64,000 nt of DNA. Source: a phage. The stretch's first letter is position 1. Every line of letters starts with the position of its first letter. The notes beneath the pieces were generated by a model. That model was not told the origin of the DNA. It worked only from the letters and a program-made list of their open reading frames with translations, and ran no database searches. Shown in pieces: positions 25,359 through 32,983 of the stretch. The stretch lies in the sequence record NC_094493.1; one strand, written 5' to 3'. Made by a program: the position numbers and the translations under genes.

Positions 25359-25376
25359 AGCCGGGATTACCCGGCT
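25359..25376 (-). terminator. terminator-like hairpin (minus strand)
   Basis: gccggg-atta-cccggc stem-loop followed on minus strand by TTTACTTATT, downstream of 25383..26096. Confidence 0.4.
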
Positions 25377-25382
25377 ATGTTG

Positions 25383-26096
25383 TCAAATATACTCTGTTAC
25401 ATCCTTGAAGCTCGAAGGCTTCATGATCTTACCTTTACTGTCAAGGAATATGATAACTTTATTACCGTTGTAGAATTCTTCCTTAGCAACAAAACCTTCA
25501 TATCGACCATCAAAGCGTCGCTCAAGATCTTTAATCTCCAACTCGATGAGTTGTTCAGCAGGCATATCTGCACTGGCACCGTGTGAATACCGTAGATGGT
25601 TGACCCGTGCAAACTTGCTGTCATTCGATTTGAGAACCTTACGCATCATCCCGCACACATCGCCGCGAAGCTGGAACAGCAAAGCTGTTGACAACTCTGC
25701 TAAGCGGTAAGCAGACGCTCTTTGCTTAGAGGTGTTTTTCGCAGCGATCAGTGTATCATAGAACTCACCAATCTTGAACTTAATACCTCGTGGATTATCA
25801 AACAGGTTTGACCACTTTTCGTGATTGTCATTAACAAGATAAGCGGCATAACTTGTGACAACATGAAGATCGCAGGCCTCTTTTAGCAAGTGATCTCCAC
25901 CATCACCTTTCTCCAGCTCTTCCAAAACTTCATTGAACTCTTCCTCAATGAAGCTAAGCTGTAATTCGAATGGTGTGTATGATTTTTTCACCTTAGCTGC
26001 CACACGGTTCCAGTTTTCCACCCAGTTGGCAGACCAAAGGTAGTTTTCAGGCTGAGACAGTTTTTCCAGGTTGTCGATCAGTTTAGTATTCAGCAT
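25383..26096 (-). CDS. hypothetical protein, possibly MazG-like pyrophosphohydrolase
   Basis: 237 aa; acidic helix FIEEEFNEVLEELEKG reminiscent of MazG EExxE metal site; weak. Confidence 0.25.
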   Translation of the reverse strand: MLNTKLIDNLEKLSQPENYLWSANWVENWNRVAAKVKKSYTPFELQLSFIEEEFNEVLEELEKGDGGDHLLKEACDLHVVTSYAAYLVNDNHEKWSNLFDNPRGIKFKIGEFYDTLIAAKNTSKQRASAYRLAELSTALLFQLRGDVCGMMRKVLKSNDSKFARVNHLRYSHGASADMPAEQLIELEIKDLERRFDGRYEGFVAKEEFYNGNKVIIFLDSKGKIMKPSSFKDVTEYI

Positions 26097-26109: not shown

Positions 26110-26871
26110 TTAAAGTTCCATAAAGTTTTCTACAGTTTCAATAAATACTTTATCAGAGAAAGCGTCAACAGCACCGTTAAACCATACAGGGATCCCGCGA
26201 TCCTCATATTGATAAAGGTCGCTACGTGAAATGCCACTTCCATCTGCACTCTGCGAATCATACTTGTTTACAATCAGCAGTTTTGTGCCTTTACAAGTAG
26301 CAGGAAACAATTCCCAGTTAAAATTAATAACTGTGTTAGAACAACCTACCAGGATAACCATATCATTGCTTGTGAGAGATGTCAACAGGTCATACATGTC
26401 TGTATACTTAGGAGCAACCTCACCGAAGAACACTACATTGGGCTTAACCCAGGTATACTTACCTGTATCTACCTCCGTGTATCCGATATTTTTAATTACA
26501 TCATTACCTTCAGCATCTTCGTAGGTGATTTCAGGCAAATACCCGTGGACATGTAAAATATCTTCATGTTTTACACCAGCACGCTCCAGCAAATCATCTA
26601 CATTGGTGGTAAGGTTGATCACACGACCAGACCAGCGGGAATACCACTCAGCGATCCGAAGATGTGCAAGGTTAGGATCAACACTGCCCAGAGCTACACG
26701 ACGTGCATTGTAAAAGTCATGCACCTTATAGTAGTTCTTGGCAAAGGTGTGGATGTTGCACACCTCATCTATGCTGAAATTCTCCCACATTGCAGTACTA
26801 CCAGATCGGAAAGTGGGAATACCAGATTCAGCGCTCAAACCAGCACCGGAGATAATAATCAGTCGTCGCAT
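26110..26871 (-). CDS. Sir2-family NAD-dependent protein
   Basis: 253 aa; sirtuin NAD-binding GAGLSAESGIPTFR, TTNVDDL and catalytic HG; no zinc-ribbon Cys pairs seen. Confidence 0.8.
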   Translation of the reverse strand: MRRLIIISGAGLSAESGIPTFRSGSTAMWENFSIDEVCNIHTFAKNYYKVHDFYNARRVALGSVDPNLAHLRIAEWYSRWSGRVINLTTNVDDLLERAGVKHEDILHVHGYLPEITYEDAEGNDVIKNIGYTEVDTGKYTWVKPNVVFFGEVAPKYTDMYDLLTSLTSNDMVILVGCSNTVINFNWELFPATCKGTKLLIVNKYDSQSADGSGISRSDLYQYEDRGIPVWFNGAVDAFSDKVFIETVENFMEL

Positions 26872-26879
26872 AAGTGCCC

Positions 26880-27230
26880 TCAGTAGATGTTTTGTTTAAT
26901 CTCTATTCCAAACTTTTTAAACGAGTCAGCTGCAAGCATGAATTTACGAGCCGCTGATGGATTAGAAGTATGTACGAAAATCTTCACGTTGTCAACCACG
27001 GGAGGCTTACCGAATACAAATTTTTCCTCCAACATGGATAGGCAATCGTATCCTTCGAATACTTCTCCTAGGTCGTTGTCCATATGCCACTCAGAAACGC
27101 GTCTGTAGAGCTTTCCCTTATCGTTAATAAAATCCATAAACTCGGAGGAATTCTTCAGCCAAACAGCGTCTGGGAGCCCGTAATTTGACGGATCTCTTAA
27201 GTCATCTAGCCACACAATCAACTTCTTCAT
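26880..27230 (-). CDS. small alpha/beta protein with receiver/flavodoxin-like acidic motifs
   Basis: 116 aa; LIVWLDDLRDP, HMDNDLGE, IFVHTSNP; ATGA-coupled to rnlA and 9 nt upstream of the Sir2 gene. Confidence 0.35.
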   Translation of the reverse strand: MKKLIVWLDDLRDPSNYGLPDAVWLKNSSEFMDFINDKGKLYRRVSEWHMDNDLGEVFEGYDCLSMLEEKFVFGKPPVVDNVKIFVHTSNPSAARKFMLAADSFKKFGIEIKQNIY

Positions 27231-28162
27231 TGCATATAGTTCTCGTTGTGGAAATAGTAATCAAGTATCTCACGGCGTTCCTGCTCCAGGAGGCAGTTCC
27301 ACACATCCTCTGTGTAATTGCTACGAATGAAGTTTACCATGCCGTAAAACTCTTCGTCAACACGTTTAAAGATATCATCATCCCAAATCTTCCAAGCTTT
27401 ACCCCTCATTACGGCCTTCCGTGCCAGATAGTATGGAGACTTGATCTTCAGCTGCAGATCATAAGGGTAGTAAGGCTTACGAATCATATACCCTTCACCT
27501 CTTGTTTCTGCAGCTAATTCTTTTGCATAGCTGAACGGAATTTCACGCACAGTGTGAGGACGTTTTGCACCAAGGTATTTGGCAATCCCATCTAAAGCTG
27601 CTTCTGGTAGCATTATTCCAGAATCATTATATCTGCAACCTATCAAATATGCGCCATGATCTTCCTGAACAATATGCGGATCTGAAGGGTGACAAATTTC
27701 AAACATGAATGTCATGTTTTCATTGCCCATAACCTTCTTGATAAGATCTAAATTACCACATTGCTCTTGGATGGTTTCCTTTGCAAGGTTACAATATGGA
27801 GAATCAAGAGACCCGGTTGTTGAGAACAATAGTTCACCTTTATGAGATGATACCACACCGAGGAATCCGTTCTTTTTCTCTACCGCAGTAACAAGTTTAC
27901 TGTCCGGTAGGTTGGTGGAGTTTTCTCCTAAGTTGAATACTTTTGTGAAAGGCCATGCCACAACATTCCCCTCATTGCCAACAACAATACCTCGGCACTC
28001 CAGTAAACGCGGAGACAAATGCCACAGATTGTTGTAGAATACTTTTCTGGCATATTTATAGATCTTTAATCCAAGATCTGGATAATACCGACTGGTTACA
28101 AGACCTTTGTCTACTAGGTCATCTGCATTAAAATACTTCATCATACGTTCCTCATTTGTCAT
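27227..28162 (-). CDS. rnlA: RNA ligase 1 (T4 RnlA-like)
   Basis: 311 aa; RLLECRGIVV...WPFTKVFNLGEN parallels T4 Rnl1 ALECRGIMF...FFNLNEN; motif I lysine in VEKKNG. Confidence 0.8.
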   Translation of the reverse strand: MTNEERMMKYFNADDLVDKGLVTSRYYPDLGLKIYKYARKVFYNNLWHLSPRLLECRGIVVGNEGNVVAWPFTKVFNLGENSTNLPDSKLVTAVEKKNGFLGVVSSHKGELLFSTTGSLDSPYCNLAKETIQEQCGNLDLIKKVMGNENMTFMFEICHPSDPHIVQEDHGAYLIGCRYNDSGIMLPEAALDGIAKYLGAKRPHTVREIPFSYAKELAAETRGEGYMIRKPYYPYDLQLKIKSPYYLARKAVMRGKAWKIWDDDIFKRVDEEFYGMVNFIRSNYTEDVWNCLLEQERREILDYYFHNENYMQ

Positions 28163-28205
28163 TTTGTCAGTCTATCCTGCCACACAAATAACCTAGTGTC
28201 AACAC

Positions 28206-28234
28206 TTGAAATTAACAAAACAGTTAGGTATACT
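28206..28234 (+). promoter_or_regulatory. sigma70-type promoter
   Basis: TTGAAA-17nt-TATACT upstream of kinase gene. Confidence 0.45.
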
Positions 28235-28262
28235 ATCATTAAAATTAAAACGGAGGGTTGCT

Positions 28263-28673
28263 ATGTCTAAAATGCTATATATCGTGCGTGGTCTGCCAGG
28301 GTCTGGCAAATCAACACTGGCAAATGCGCTATCTTTAGAAGGTCTGTATCCACATTTTGAGAACGACATGTTCTGGTATGACGATGACGGCAATTACAAC
28401 TGGGATGCAAGTAAAGTAACACTCGCAGCAAAATGGTGCAAAGATAACGTAGAAGATATGATGCGTATGGGATACGACCGTATCGTGGTAAGTAATACGT
28501 TTACAAAAGAAAAACATGTGCAGGAATATGTTGACATGGCAATCAGTCACGGGTATAGTTATACCGTGATCGTGGTTGAAAACCGCCACGGTAATAAAAG
28601 CATTCATGATGTTCCAGACAAGGTTGTGGATCGTATGGAACGCCAGCTTAAAAACTGCATTAAACTTAAATGA
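28263..28673 (+). CDS. P-loop kinase, polynucleotide 5'-kinase-like
   Basis: 136 aa from ATG after GGAGGG; Walker A RGLPGSGKST as in T4 Pnk kinase domain GCPGSGKST. Confidence 0.65.
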   Translation: MSKMLYIVRGLPGSGKSTLANALSLEGLYPHFENDMFWYDDDGNYNWDASKVTLAAKWCKDNVEDMMRMGYDRIVVSNTFTKEKHVQEYVDMAISHGYSYTVIVVENRHGNKSIHDVPDKVVDRMERQLKNCIKLK

Positions 28674-28680
28674 GGAATGT

Positions 28681-29235
28681 ATGAAATACTTTGTAACAAG
28701 CGACACACACTTTCTCCACCAGCGGGTCATGGAGTTTGATTCATGTCAAAAACACAGATCTCAGTATGATCACAATCTTGACAGTATGAATGCGGGAATC
28801 ATCACCAAGTGGAACTCTGTTGTGTCACCTGCAGACACTGTGTTTCACTTGGGAGATATTGCGTGCACTAATGATAAGAATATCAACAAATTGCTCCCAG
28901 ATGTTCTAAATATGTTGAACGGACATATTATTCTTGTTCGTGGTAACCATGACACAAGGACGACTGTCAGAATTATGAAAGAGTTCGGTCATGAGGTTGT
29001 AGATTATTACGAGCTTCGCCACAACAAGAATTTGATCTGTATGAGCCATTACCAGTTTGCAAAGTGGAACAGAAAGCCTCACGGATCAGTCCAACTGTTC
29101 GGTCATGCTCACGGAACCACACAGCAGTTGTTTGGCAGGCAGTTTGATGTCGGTTGGGATGTGTGGGGGAGACTCTTACCATTAGAAGAGGCATACCGTA
29201 TTGCAATGAGTCTTGCTATTGACAGCGGGGAGTAA
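28681..29235 (+). CDS. calcineurin-like metallophosphatase
   Basis: 184 aa from ATG 7 nt after kinase stop with GAGGA RBS; motifs SDTHF, GDIA, GNHD, GHAH. Confidence 0.75.
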   Translation: MKYFVTSDTHFLHQRVMEFDSCQKHRSQYDHNLDSMNAGIITKWNSVVSPADTVFHLGDIACTNDKNINKLLPDVLNMLNGHIILVRGNHDTRTTVRIMKEFGHEVVDYYELRHNKNLICMSHYQFAKWNRKPHGSVQLFGHAHGTTQQLFGRQFDVGWDVWGRLLPLEEAYRIAMSLAIDSGE

Positions 29236-32170: not shown

Positions 32171-32245
32171 GCCCTGTTAGCTTAGTGGATAAAGCAGCGG
32201 CCTTCTAAGCCGTTGACACTGGTTCGAGTCCAGTACGGGGTGCCA
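32171..32245 (+). tRNA. tRNA-Arg (anticodon TCT)
   Basis: cloverleaf drawn by hand: acceptor gccctgt/acggggt, anticodon loop cttctaa, T-loop ttcgagt, encoded CCA. Confidence 0.75.
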
Positions 32246-32249
32246 AATT

Positions 32250-32336
32250 GGGGAGTTATCCCGTAGAGGTAGCGGTGTAGACTGTAAATCTATTGTCATT
32301 GCGACTCGGGTGGTTCGACTCCACCACTCCCCACCA
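32250..32336 (+). tRNA. tRNA-Tyr (anticodon GTA), long variable arm
   Basis: acceptor ggggagt/actcccc, anticodon loop ctgtaaa, T-arm ggtgg-ttcgact-ccacc, CCA; 87 nt. Confidence 0.75.
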
Positions 32337-32450
32337 AATTTATATTTTTAGATGCATAAATAATACAGATAATGGCATTGATATTTATCGTCGTTTATAC
32401 TAGTCACTAACTGCTCGAAAATCAGTGTCATTATCAGTATAATTTATAAA

Positions 32451-32541
32451 GGAGGGTAGGGAGCAATGGTGCTCAAGCGGTCTTGAAAACCGTCCCGTTG
32501 AGGATGACTCGATGATGGTTCGATTCCATTACTCTCCGCCA
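32451..32541 (+). tRNA. tRNA-Ser (anticodon TGA), long variable arm
   Basis: acceptor ggagggt/actctcc, anticodon stem gcggt/accgt with loop cttgaaa, T-loop ttcgatt, CCA; about 91 nt. Confidence 0.7.
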
Positions 32542-32639
32542 CATTGTTGACCTTGTAATTAAGCGAAAGCCGGAAGCAGAACCGGATTATCAAATGTTAC
32601 AGTCGTCATCGCCGACTAGCAACATGGTCAACATACTGA

Positions 32640-32736
32640 GCTAGGTAAGCCCTTTGGCAAGGGCGAGGATTTTTAATCCTGAAAATAGACGAGGTAGTCG
32701 TTGAATACATAGGTGGTTCGATTCCATCACCTAGCA
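32640..32736 (+). tRNA. atypical tRNA-like gene (possible tRNA-Lys TTT variant, about 97 nt)
   Basis: acceptor gctaggt/acctagc, D-arm gccc...gggc, T-arm ggtgg-ttcgatt-ccatc; anticodon arm aggatttttaatcct ambiguous; about 30-nt extra arm; no CCA. Confidence 0.45.
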
Positions 32737-32743
32737 CCTTTTT

Positions 32744-32819
32744 GCTGATGTAGCACAATCGGTAGTGCAATTGATTTGTAATCAATAGGTTGTAGGTTCA
32801 AGTCCTGCCATCAGCACCA
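32744..32819 (+). tRNA. tRNA-Thr (anticodon TGT)
   Basis: acceptor gctgatg/catcagc, anticodon stem attga/tcaat with loop tttgtaa, T-loop ttcaagt, CCA. Confidence 0.75.
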
Positions 32820-32820
32820 A

Positions 32821-32895
32821 GGCCCTGTAGCTGGAAGGTTCAAGCAAGCGACTCATAATCGCCAGACGGTGGTTCAATTCCACCCAGGGCCACCA
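32821..32895 (+). tRNA. tRNA-Met/Ile2 (anticodon CAT), elongator-type
   Basis: acceptor ggccctg/cagggcc with paired 1-72, anticodon loop ctcataa, T-arm ggtgg-ttcaatt-ccacc, CCA. Confidence 0.7.
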
Positions 32896-32906
32896 AATAG
32901 TAAATA

Positions 32907-32983
32907 CTCCGCGTAGCTCAGCTTGGTAGAGCGCCTGATTTGGGATCAGGAGGTCGAGTGTTCGAATCACTCCGTGGAGACCA
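32907..32983 (+). tRNA. tRNA-Pro (anticodon TGG)
   Basis: acceptor ctccgcg/cgtggag, anticodon stem cctga/tcagg with loop tttggga, T-loop ttcgaat, CCA. Confidence 0.75.

Follow-up and report, generated by a model that had tools for sequence, protein, structure and literature searches.

Sequence record NC_094493.1 supplied the 64,000-nucleotide stretch of phage DNA analyzed here (the window), in which a gene for an RNA ligase is followed on the minus strand by genes for a 116-amino-acid (aa) protein and a Sir2-like protein (sirtuin), the latter two at positions 26,110 to 27,230. Our analysis places the 116-aa protein in the cREC family, described in Pfam as a "cyclic-phosphate processing receiver domain", and suggests, as a tentative reading that we hold at slightly less than even, that the three genes belong to a phage cassette for the repair of breaks in RNA, probably tRNA. 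Approximately 120 sequenced Vequintavirus phages (rV5-like E. coli myoviruses) match the region along its full length at 96-98% identity, and phiWec189, Murica, JES2013 and the BASEL phage EmilHeitz are among these near-identical relatives. In the annotation of these relatives, the minus-strand unit encodes an RNA ligase, a hypothetical protein, a Sir2/NAD-dependent deacetylase and a nucleotide pyrophosphohydrolase, and the opposite strand encodes a polynucleotide kinase and a phosphoesterase. Approximately 20 records named "Campylobacter phage" (MG065639-MG065690; host C. jejuni) are also 96-98% identical to the E. coli vequintaviruses over this region, and their host labels are probably wrong or due to contamination.

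Gene layout and transcription unit

The preliminary description of this locus, made from the letters alone, had the three minus-strand genes packed as one translationally coupled unit. The layout itself holds: the TGA stop codon of the ligase gene (27229-27227) overlaps the ATG of the 116-aa open reading frame (ORF; 27230-27228) as ATGA, both in the ORF list and in a read of the reverse strand, and 8 nt separate the stop codon of this ORF from the start of the Sir2 gene, which has a GAGGG ribosome-binding site 5 nt 5′ of its ATG. A MazG-like ORF comes 13 nt beyond the Sir2 gene, with an AAGGAG site. The true start of the ligase gene is probably the ATG at 28144 rather than 28162, giving a protein of 305 aa, since a GAGG precedes this ATG and phage EmilHeitz is annotated with the same start. 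We predict that these four genes form a single transcription unit (approximately 28.2 to 25.36 kb, minus strand), which faces a divergent kinase and metallophosphoesterase pair across an intergenic region of approximately 100 nt (Table 1).

The region has a single strong terminator-like hairpin, the GC hairpin at the end of this unit, and phage Murica has a terminator annotated at the same place; no terminator-like site was found on the minus strand between the ligase start and this hairpin. The candidate promoter of the unit combines a perfect -35 with an extended -10 TG and a weak -10; it was read by eye, which makes it weak evidence only, and it was not reported by the consensus promoter scan. 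Promoter-like matches are not commoner in the region than in shuffled sequence (18 versus 16.3 +/- 3.9), and the same is true of terminator-like matches. We also considered internal promoters that would split the genes, and found the sequence uninformative on this point, with promoter-like matches at the shuffled level and the minus strand free of terminator-like sites within the unit.

Genes are generally packed tightly in this genome: of the 34 same-strand junctions annotated in phage Murica over the 43 kb around cREC, 16 are overlaps and 21 lie within 10 nt. Because overlapping genes are the rule here, packing is uninformative alone, and the ligase/cREC overlap in this single genome is no evidence of functional coupling. 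Translational coupling of the kind first proposed is plausible but non-specific.

Two further observations concern the divergent region. Upstream TTG starts in the program-made ORF list (positions 28206-28262 and 28576-28680) give the kinase and phosphoesterase genes an apparent overlap of 98 nt, which is abolished by the ATG starts at 28263 and 28681 annotated in relatives. The sign of the GC skew flips at approximately 28100-28260, precisely the ligase/kinase divergent intergenic region, and this flip is the switch from a leftward to a rightward transcription block. Recent horizontal acquisition of the cassette found no support, with a uniform GC content of 0.39-0.47 and no signal apart from this skew flip.

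Table 1. Positions of the genes and signals discussed in the text (window numbering unless a locus is named)
Feature	Position	Strand or location	Details
Rnl1-type RNA ligase ORF	27227..28162	minus	311 aa as listed
cREC ORF	26880..27230	minus	116 aa
Sir2 ORF	26110..26871	minus	253 aa
MazG-like nucleotide pyrophosphohydrolase, fourth and last gene of the unit	25383..26096	minus	237 aa
Terminator-like GC hairpin closing the four-gene unit	25359..25376	minus	7-bp stem, 6 GC pairs
Candidate promoter of the minus-strand unit	28174..28202	minus	TTGACA, 17 nt, TGg-CAGGAT
P-loop kinase, divergent, predicted polynucleotide 5′-kinase	28263..28673	plus	136 aa
Calcineurin-type metallophosphoesterase, predicted 2′/3′-phosphate end-healing	28681..29235	plus	184 aa
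phrog_9509 protein gene	L020 4525-5010, L053 5504-6007, L057 5444-5986, L061 5417-6001	Phapecoctavirus-like loci	

Protein families encoded at the locus

The 116-aa protein matches the Pfam family PF20274 (cREC_REC) at 54.9 bits against a cut-off of 27, rather than Response_reg, and PF20274 is present in the listed homologues of this protein, except one 63-aa fragment. The protein had been read as receiver-like from three motifs, all of which are present (LIVWLDDLRDP at residues 4-14, HMDNDLGE at 49-56 and VHTSNP at 86-91), and this reading is borne out both by the Pfam match and by structure prediction. An AlphaFold model based on 40 homologues has a CheY-like receiver fold (predicted local distance difference test, pLDDT, 91.9) and keeps the receiver phospho-acceptor pocket, with D9/D10, D51 and T88/S89 at the ends of beta1, beta3 and beta4, respectively. 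The beta5 lysine of receivers is replaced by Q113 here and by arginine in most homologues, and residues R12, P14, D53, H87, N90 and K96 are invariant in the cREC family. A single-sequence search of the PDB with this protein gave chance matches only, and no two-component-type kinase is annotated in the 43 kb around its gene. We class cREC as a stand-alone receiver-fold protein and a predicted Asp-based (cyclic) phosphoesterase. The family was named, with operonic links to RNA ligases, by Iyer et al. 2021 (PMC7824862), and its hydrolysis of 2′,3′- or 1′′,2′′-cyclic phosphates is a prediction of PMC7824862 and PMC9503650, in which cREC is described as experimentally uncharacterized.

The Sir2 protein matches Pfam PF02146 (7e-28; 98.2 bits against a cut-off of 24) over 178 of the 180 profile positions. 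Its residues 9-22 read GAGLSAESGIPTFR, the nicotinamide adenine dinucleotide (NAD) pocket motif quoted in the preliminary description, and the HG quoted with it is H109 and G110. The GAG (G9, A10, G11), S16, F21, R22, Y54, R57, N90, D92, H109, G110, the FGE motif, S178, N179 and N202 are invariant in 30 members of its clade. In classical sirtuins, zinc-ribbon cysteines hold the substrate-binding small domain. The only cysteines of the phage protein are C38, C177 and C193, none at a zinc-ribbon position; the zinc-ribbon cysteines of E. coli CobB align to residues other than cysteine, and a conserved cysteine at these positions is found in none of the 30 clade members. A canonical NAD pocket without zinc-ribbon cysteines, as first described, is thus confirmed. 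A beta-sheet module persists in the AlphaFold2 model (pLDDT 89.6) despite the absent Cys-ligated zinc ribbon.

By both sequence and model, the closest relatives of this protein are E. coli CobB, SIRT5 and Sir2Af; for example, phmmer matches it to CobB (1S5P) at 3e-21, and Foldseek aligns the model to CobB with a template modeling (TM) score of 0.75-0.84. It scores below the NCBIfam cut-offs for CobB (NF001753, 122.6 versus 243; NF040867, 104 versus 320). Residues Y54 and R57 (YxxR, the acyl-carboxylate pocket) align to the FYNARR motif of CobB and correspond to Tyr92 and Arg95, a pair needed for desuccinylation (PMC6636992). The protein matches no family besides sirtuin and shows neither the ART-like fold nor the profile of KptA/Tpt1. 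Searches for defence Sir2 families gave a SIR2_2 match below threshold (E 0.097) and no PADLOC match. Sequence and model together indicate a divergent, zinc-less CobB/SIRT5-like (class III-like) sirtuin with its predicted catalytic set intact.

The ligase matches Pfam RNA_lig_T4_1 (PF09511; 9e-15, 55.5 bits against a cut-off of 28.3) and phrog_562 (4e-66). A profile of seven homologues matches the T4 Rnl1 structures 2C5U, 5TT6 and 9DO4 at 1e-49, a score inflated by the one T4-like Rnl1 sequence that the profile contains, and the match to 2C5U spans T4 residues 11-288, the nucleotidyltransferase domain. The motif I lysine (EKKNG; the K of KxNG) is invariant, and the protein ends at approximately T4 residue 310 of 374, so that it lacks the C-terminal tRNA-binding/specificity domain of T4 Rnl1. 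It falls below the NCBIfam equivalog cut-off (TIGR02308, 38 bits versus 242), and no Trl1-type ligase was matched by the protein. As judged from these matches, it is a T4 Rnl1-type ligase with a nucleotidyltransferase domain only.

The MazG-like protein matches phrog_671 (5e-22) and, weakly, Pfam PRA-PH; this fourth gene, named a MazG superfamily pyrophosphatase in PMC9503650, is co-localized in all related loci. On the plus strand, the kinase matches Pfam AAA_33 at 1.7e-10 and is annotated as a polynucleotide kinase in EmilHeitz, and the metallophosphoesterase matches Pfam Metallophos/Metallophos_2 at approximately 5e-6 and PDB 1XM7 at 7e-11. Single-sequence searches of the PDB with the ligase, the kinase and the MazG-like protein gave no match, the ligase reaching T4 Rnl1 only by profile.

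A phage tRNA cluster lies at 32171-32983, 3.4 kb from the repair genes, and Rfam identifies tRNAs as the only structured RNAs of the region. One tRNA gene of this cluster (32640-32736, plus strand) is 97 nt long; in the Infernal alignment it has the anticodon loop UUUUUAA with the anticodon UUU (Lys), and a 26-nt insertion in the variable region, which folds as a hairpin. ARAGORN cannot name this tRNA, which is annotated as tRNA-Lys in EmilHeitz and "tRNA-OTHER" in Murica. Anticodon nucleases classically target tRNA-Lys(UUU). We rejected an intron that would call for a ligase and Tpt1-type splicing, because it is the variable region, and not the anticodon loop, that carries the 26 additional nt.

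Distribution and neighborhoods in other phages

The suggestion that this gene combination may be undescribed was wrong. Iyer, Burroughs, Anantharaman & Aravind 2022 (Viruses 14:1977; PMC9503650, section 3.7.3) described three sirtuin-centred phage neighborhoods, of which type 2 consists of a sirtuin, a T4-like tRNA ligase, cREC, a nucleotide kinase, MazG and an occasional calcineurin-like phosphoesterase, with Escherichia phage V5 and Proteus phage Mydo as prototypes, and the third is a T5-like/SP15 type with a HAD phosphatase; cREC was already in PMC7824862. The system is therefore known by comparative genomics in this very phage group, and ours is a re-discovery.

Among 50,697 phage records, we found the Sir2 clade in 1010, cREC in 356 and Rnl1 homologues in 814, i.e., Sir2 is far more widespread than cREC. 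The gene order is Rnl1-cREC-Sir2-MazG in Vequintavirus, Metallophos...Rnl1-cREC-kinase-(75 aa)-Sir2-DNA ligase...MazG in Mydovirus and related 146-kb phages, and Metallophos-Rnl1-kinase-Sir2-DNA ligase-MazG in other contigs of approximately 147-153 kb. The cREC gene overlaps the Rnl1 gene both here and in Mydovirus, where the 4-nt overlap is retained although the ligases are only approximately 47% identical, and an overlap kept across rearranged genomes is better evidence than the packing seen here.

To survey the neighborhoods of Sir2, we sampled 80 loci from IMG/VR and sought RNA end-processing genes within 6 kb. A recognizable gene of this kind is present in 41 of these loci: 13 have a ligase/kinase/phosphoesterase cluster, and 28 are T5-like, with a phosphatase of the Pfam family HAD_SAK_2 ("Swiss Army Knife RNA repair") approximately 0.2-0.5 kb downstream of Sir2. 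Two unrelated phage families thus pair Sir2 with an Asp-nucleophile phosphoesterase, which is cREC in V5-like and HAD_SAK_2 in T5-like phages. One HAD_SAK_2 phosphatase, orf108 of Escherichia phage AKFV33 (T5.105; locus L019, 6132-6638), is labelled "Sir2 (NAD-dependent deacetylase)" in RefSeq and PHROG, yet matches HAD_SAK_2 at 2.4e-20; the label is likely an annotation error propagated from its neighbor.

Rnl1, a kinase of approximately 135 aa and a metallophosphoesterase of approximately 185 aa are also found as an adjacent trio, without Sir2 or cREC, in Pseudomonas phage PaP1 (L103), Vibrio phage Achelous (L104) and an Acinetobacter phage (L106). This distribution indicates that the trio is a conserved heal-and-seal core, and that Sir2, cREC and MazG are lineage-specific additions. 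In PaP1, Achelous and Proteus phage Mydo (L021), the trio adjoins NAD+ salvage genes, encoding ribose-phosphate pyrophosphokinase (Prs) and nicotinamide phosphoribosyltransferase (NAMPT); tblastn found no homologue of either in the window.

Sir2 genes in other settings gave two side observations. Among 133 neighboring proteins from 23 of the loci that have no RNA-repair neighbor, one matches Pfam Tad3, a type I Thoeris inhibitor, and others match NAPRTase or ribose-phosphate pyrophosphokinase, which hints that some phage Sir2 genes are in NAD+/anti-Thoeris rather than RNA-repair contexts. In Phapecoctavirus-like loci, Sir2 is preceded, with overlapping starts, by a gene for a conserved acidic protein of approximately 160 aa (phrog_9509). 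Its invariant motifs S-x-CETCG and ASC (CETCG...C) are possibly metal-binding, which is intriguing beside a sirtuin without zinc cysteines. We considered phrog_9509 as a hidden phosphoesterase or a zinc module acting in trans that would be relevant here; it matches no known family and has no homologue in the window.

A possible NAD+-linked RNA repair module and its alternatives

The mechanism that we infer for this locus is the model of Iyer et al. 2022, adopted here with explicit weights. These authors proposed that the sirtuin acts like KptA/Tpt1 on an RNA 2′-phosphate, and that cREC, the HAD and calcineurin-like enzymes and Nudix open a cyclic phosphate or process an ADP-ribose cyclic phosphate (PMC9503650). 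Applied to the present locus, the ligase/kinase/metallophosphoesterase trio would heal and seal 2′,3′-cyclic-phosphate/5′-OH breaks made by host ribotoxins, like T4 Pnkp and Rnl1, and cREC, Sir2 and MazG would be an NAD+-dependent accessory branch that handles the 2′-phosphate or cyclic phosphate. Sir2 would move the RNA 2′-phosphate onto NAD+, doing the work of Tpt1/KptA without being homologous to them, and the ADP-ribose-phosphate by-product would be degraded by MazG and/or the metallophosphoesterase. We regard the case for Sir2 and cREC acting in RNA-end or ADP-ribose-phosphate processing as evenly balanced, and the narrower claim that Sir2 is a 2′-phosphotransferase as doubtful.

The recurrent pairing of Sir2 with a phosphoesterase fits a phosphate-bearing substrate or product better than it fits deacylation, since the product of the latter, O-acyl-ADP-ribose, would not call for a phosphatase. 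The invariant anion-binding pair Y54/R57 could, in such a reaction, bind phosphate. The HAD phosphatase of T4 Pnkp resolves a 2′,3′-cyclic phosphate through an Asp-phosphoenzyme (PMC3592404), which is a precedent for the Asp chemistry proposed for cREC. The phage tRNA cluster 3.4 kb away, with its unusual tRNA-Lys(UUU), also speaks for a role in RNA repair. A more specific proposal, which we consider somewhat unlikely, is that the zinc-less Sir2 clade replaces Tpt1/KptA, and that an Asp-nucleophile phosphoesterase is its true conserved partner, making the substrate or clearing ADP-ribose-cyclic-phosphate, with this dyad added to the trio. The idea of a sirtuin acting on RNA is already in print; novelty would lie in its demonstration and in recognizing the dyad as a unit.

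An NAD+-linked module operating with RNA repair had also been suggested in the preliminary description, and this part agrees with the intact NAD+/catalytic set and with the rearranged co-localization of Sir2 with ligase, kinase, metallophosphoesterase and MazG. The added suggestion that the module counters NAD-based host immunity found no specific support, given the absence of PADLOC matches and the sub-threshold SIR2_2 score.

A number of observations weigh against an RNA-repair role for Sir2 and cREC. Within the 6-kb limit, 39 of the 80 Sir2 loci have no RNA-repair neighbor, and no RNA-repair family is enriched among the 133 neighboring proteins from 23 of them. In Phapecoctavirus, Sir2 lies approximately 31 kb from a cREC-Metallophos-Rnl1-kinase cluster and adjoins the cysteine-motif protein, and distant cRECs (28-35% identity) have no recognizable RNA-repair neighbors. 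The supporting loci belong mostly to a small number of related lineages, so that shared ancestry inflates the counts, and the independent links between Sir2 and RNA repair number about two to three, not dozens. PaP1, Achelous and the Acinetobacter phage have the complete trio but neither Sir2 nor cREC; a metallophosphoesterase able to clear 2′/3′-phosphates would make a Tpt1-like step unnecessary; and, with a ligase that is T4 Rnl1-like and not Trl1-like, nothing points to a 2′-phosphate requirement. No lysine deacylase feature has been lost from Sir2 itself, FGE and YxxR included. Protection by retron Eco2 remains effective against Vequintavirinae (PMC12916289), and the searchable literature holds no experimental work on phage sirtuins, cREC or Vequintavirus RNA repair.

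The leading alternative, although we consider it unlikely, is that Sir2 is an ordinary NAD+-dependent lysine deacylase (a CobB-like deacetylase/desuccinylase) that remodels host or phage acylation, and that its place beside the ligase reflects the dense packing of early/middle metabolic genes. Its nearest relatives in sequence and structure are CobB, SIRT5 and Sir2Af, and it keeps all of the deacylase residues, among them H109 (catalytic), the peptide-binding FGE motif and Y54/R57, the pair that serves for succinyl-lysine. Overlapping or abutting genes are normal in this genome, and the linkage of Sir2 to RNA-repair genes is absent from Phapecoctavirus and from half of the loci sampled. Set against this are scores far under the NCBIfam CobB subfamily/equivalog cut-offs, the loss of the zinc-ribbon cysteines throughout the clade, and the repeated phosphoesterase linkage (cREC; HAD_SAK_2) in two unrelated phage families, which this explanation leaves unaccounted for.

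It is less probable still that Sir2 and cREC act not on RNA ends but on small NAD+/ADP-ribose-derived or cyclic-phosphate nucleotides in the counter-defence role first suggested, e.g., by destroying immune signals of the host such as cyclic ADP-ribose isomers, 2′,3′-cyclic nucleotides or cyclic oligoadenylate products, or by buffering NAD+ chemistry. cREC is predicted to process cyclic phosphates in ADP-ribose derivatives as well as in RNA (PMC7824862, PMC9503650), MazG-type pyrophosphatases work on free nucleotides, and this explanation would also suit the Prs and NAMPT genes that adjoin the trio in Mydo, PaP1 and Achelous and the Tad3, NAPRTase and Prs matches among the 133 Sir2 neighbors. 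The window, however, has neither a Prs nor a NAMPT homologue, Sir2, cREC and MazG match no PADLOC or anti-defence family, an NAD+-consuming sirtuin would aggravate rather than relieve NAD+-depleting immunity, and ligase, kinase and HAD_SAK_2, the conserved partners, are enzymes of RNA ends. Classification as a defence-type Sir2 or an anti-defence protein was rejected, as PADLOC matched none of the six proteins, bar weak P-loop matches of the kinase.

CobB has been reported to deacetylate CheY. A non-enzymatic cREC, i.e., a single-domain response regulator that receives its phosphate from acetyl phosphate or from a host kinase and acts as a phospho-switch that regulates, or is a substrate of, the ligase or Sir2, is very improbable: the phospho-acceptor pocket is kept (D9/D10, D51, T88/S89) and the Rnl1/cREC stop-start overlap is conserved across genera, but the conserved beta5 lysine is lost, the additional invariant polar residues R12, D53, H87, N90 and K96 suggest a remodelled catalytic site, cREC is found fused to Nudix but never occurs with histidine kinases (PMC9503650), and cREC and Sir2 are unlinked in Phapecoctavirus.

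If the predicted RNA-repair role of Sir2 and cREC is true, these phages would repair RNA ends by a second route as well, one that depends on NAD+ and uses a sirtuin together with a receiver-fold enzyme. To our knowledge, neither sirtuins nor receiver-fold enzymes are known to act on RNA. Such a route would add RNA phosphate to acyl-lysine as a target of sirtuin chemistry and catalysis to the signalling role of receiver domains. It would also shed light on the survival of large virulent coliphages, e.g., the BASEL Vequintavirinae, in the face of defences that cleave tRNA. The main value of the locus is as a well-defined and cheap experimental target.

T4 Pnkp and Rnl1 counter the anticodon nuclease PrrC by tRNA repair. 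The present locus resembles the T4 system in its Rnl1-family ligase, P-loop 5′-kinase and 3′-end phosphoesterase, and in a phage setting with its own tRNA genes nearby. It differs in that the kinase and phosphatase are separate proteins, the phosphatase is calcineurin-type and not HAD, and the ligase is without the C-terminal domain found in T4 Rnl1; T4 has nothing that corresponds to Sir2, cREC or MazG. The same logic as that proposed here is found in fungal and plant tRNA splicing (Trl1/AtRNL and Tpt1, then Cpd1/Poa1 on Appr>p), where a cyclic phosphodiesterase leaves a 2′-phosphate, a kinase provides the 5′-phosphate, an ATP-dependent ligase seals, an NAD+-dependent enzyme strips the 2′-phosphate and the by-product is cleaned up (PMC10946426, PMC11417386). 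The enzymes are non-homologous: Sir2 does not have the ART fold of Tpt1/KptA, cREC has a receiver fold and not that of a 2H phosphodiesterase, the phage ligase matches T4 Rnl1 and not Trl1, and a metallophosphoesterase is present in addition.

For the individual proteins, CobB/SIRT5 and the phage Sir2 have in common the GAG and TxNxD motifs, the catalytic histidine, FGE and the Tyr/Arg pair for succinyl-lysine; the phage protein is set apart by its lack of zinc cysteines, by scores at approximately half of the NCBIfam cut-offs and by its linkage to phosphoesterases, and the close homologues listed for it are confined to named phage records and to contigs of phage size. The defence Sir2 NADases (ThsA, DSR, SIR2-HerA and pAgo-Sir2) share the Sir2 superfamily, the use of NAD+ and the absent zinc ribbon, whereas the protein described here is phage-encoded and stand-alone, has no sensor or effector partner and, as noted above, matches no PADLOC model and SIR2_2 only below threshold. 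The CheY-like receivers of two-component systems have the conserved beta5 lysine that cREC lacks, and cREC has no output domain, no histidine kinase among the annotated genes of the region, and invariants specific to its own family. Lastly, the gene set is identical to that of type 2 of Iyer et al. 2022 (V5/Mydo), which is the same system, the window belonging to the V5 group; what is new relative to that study is the detail of gene order and overlaps, the structural models, the split into a core trio and accessory genes, and the linkage counts.

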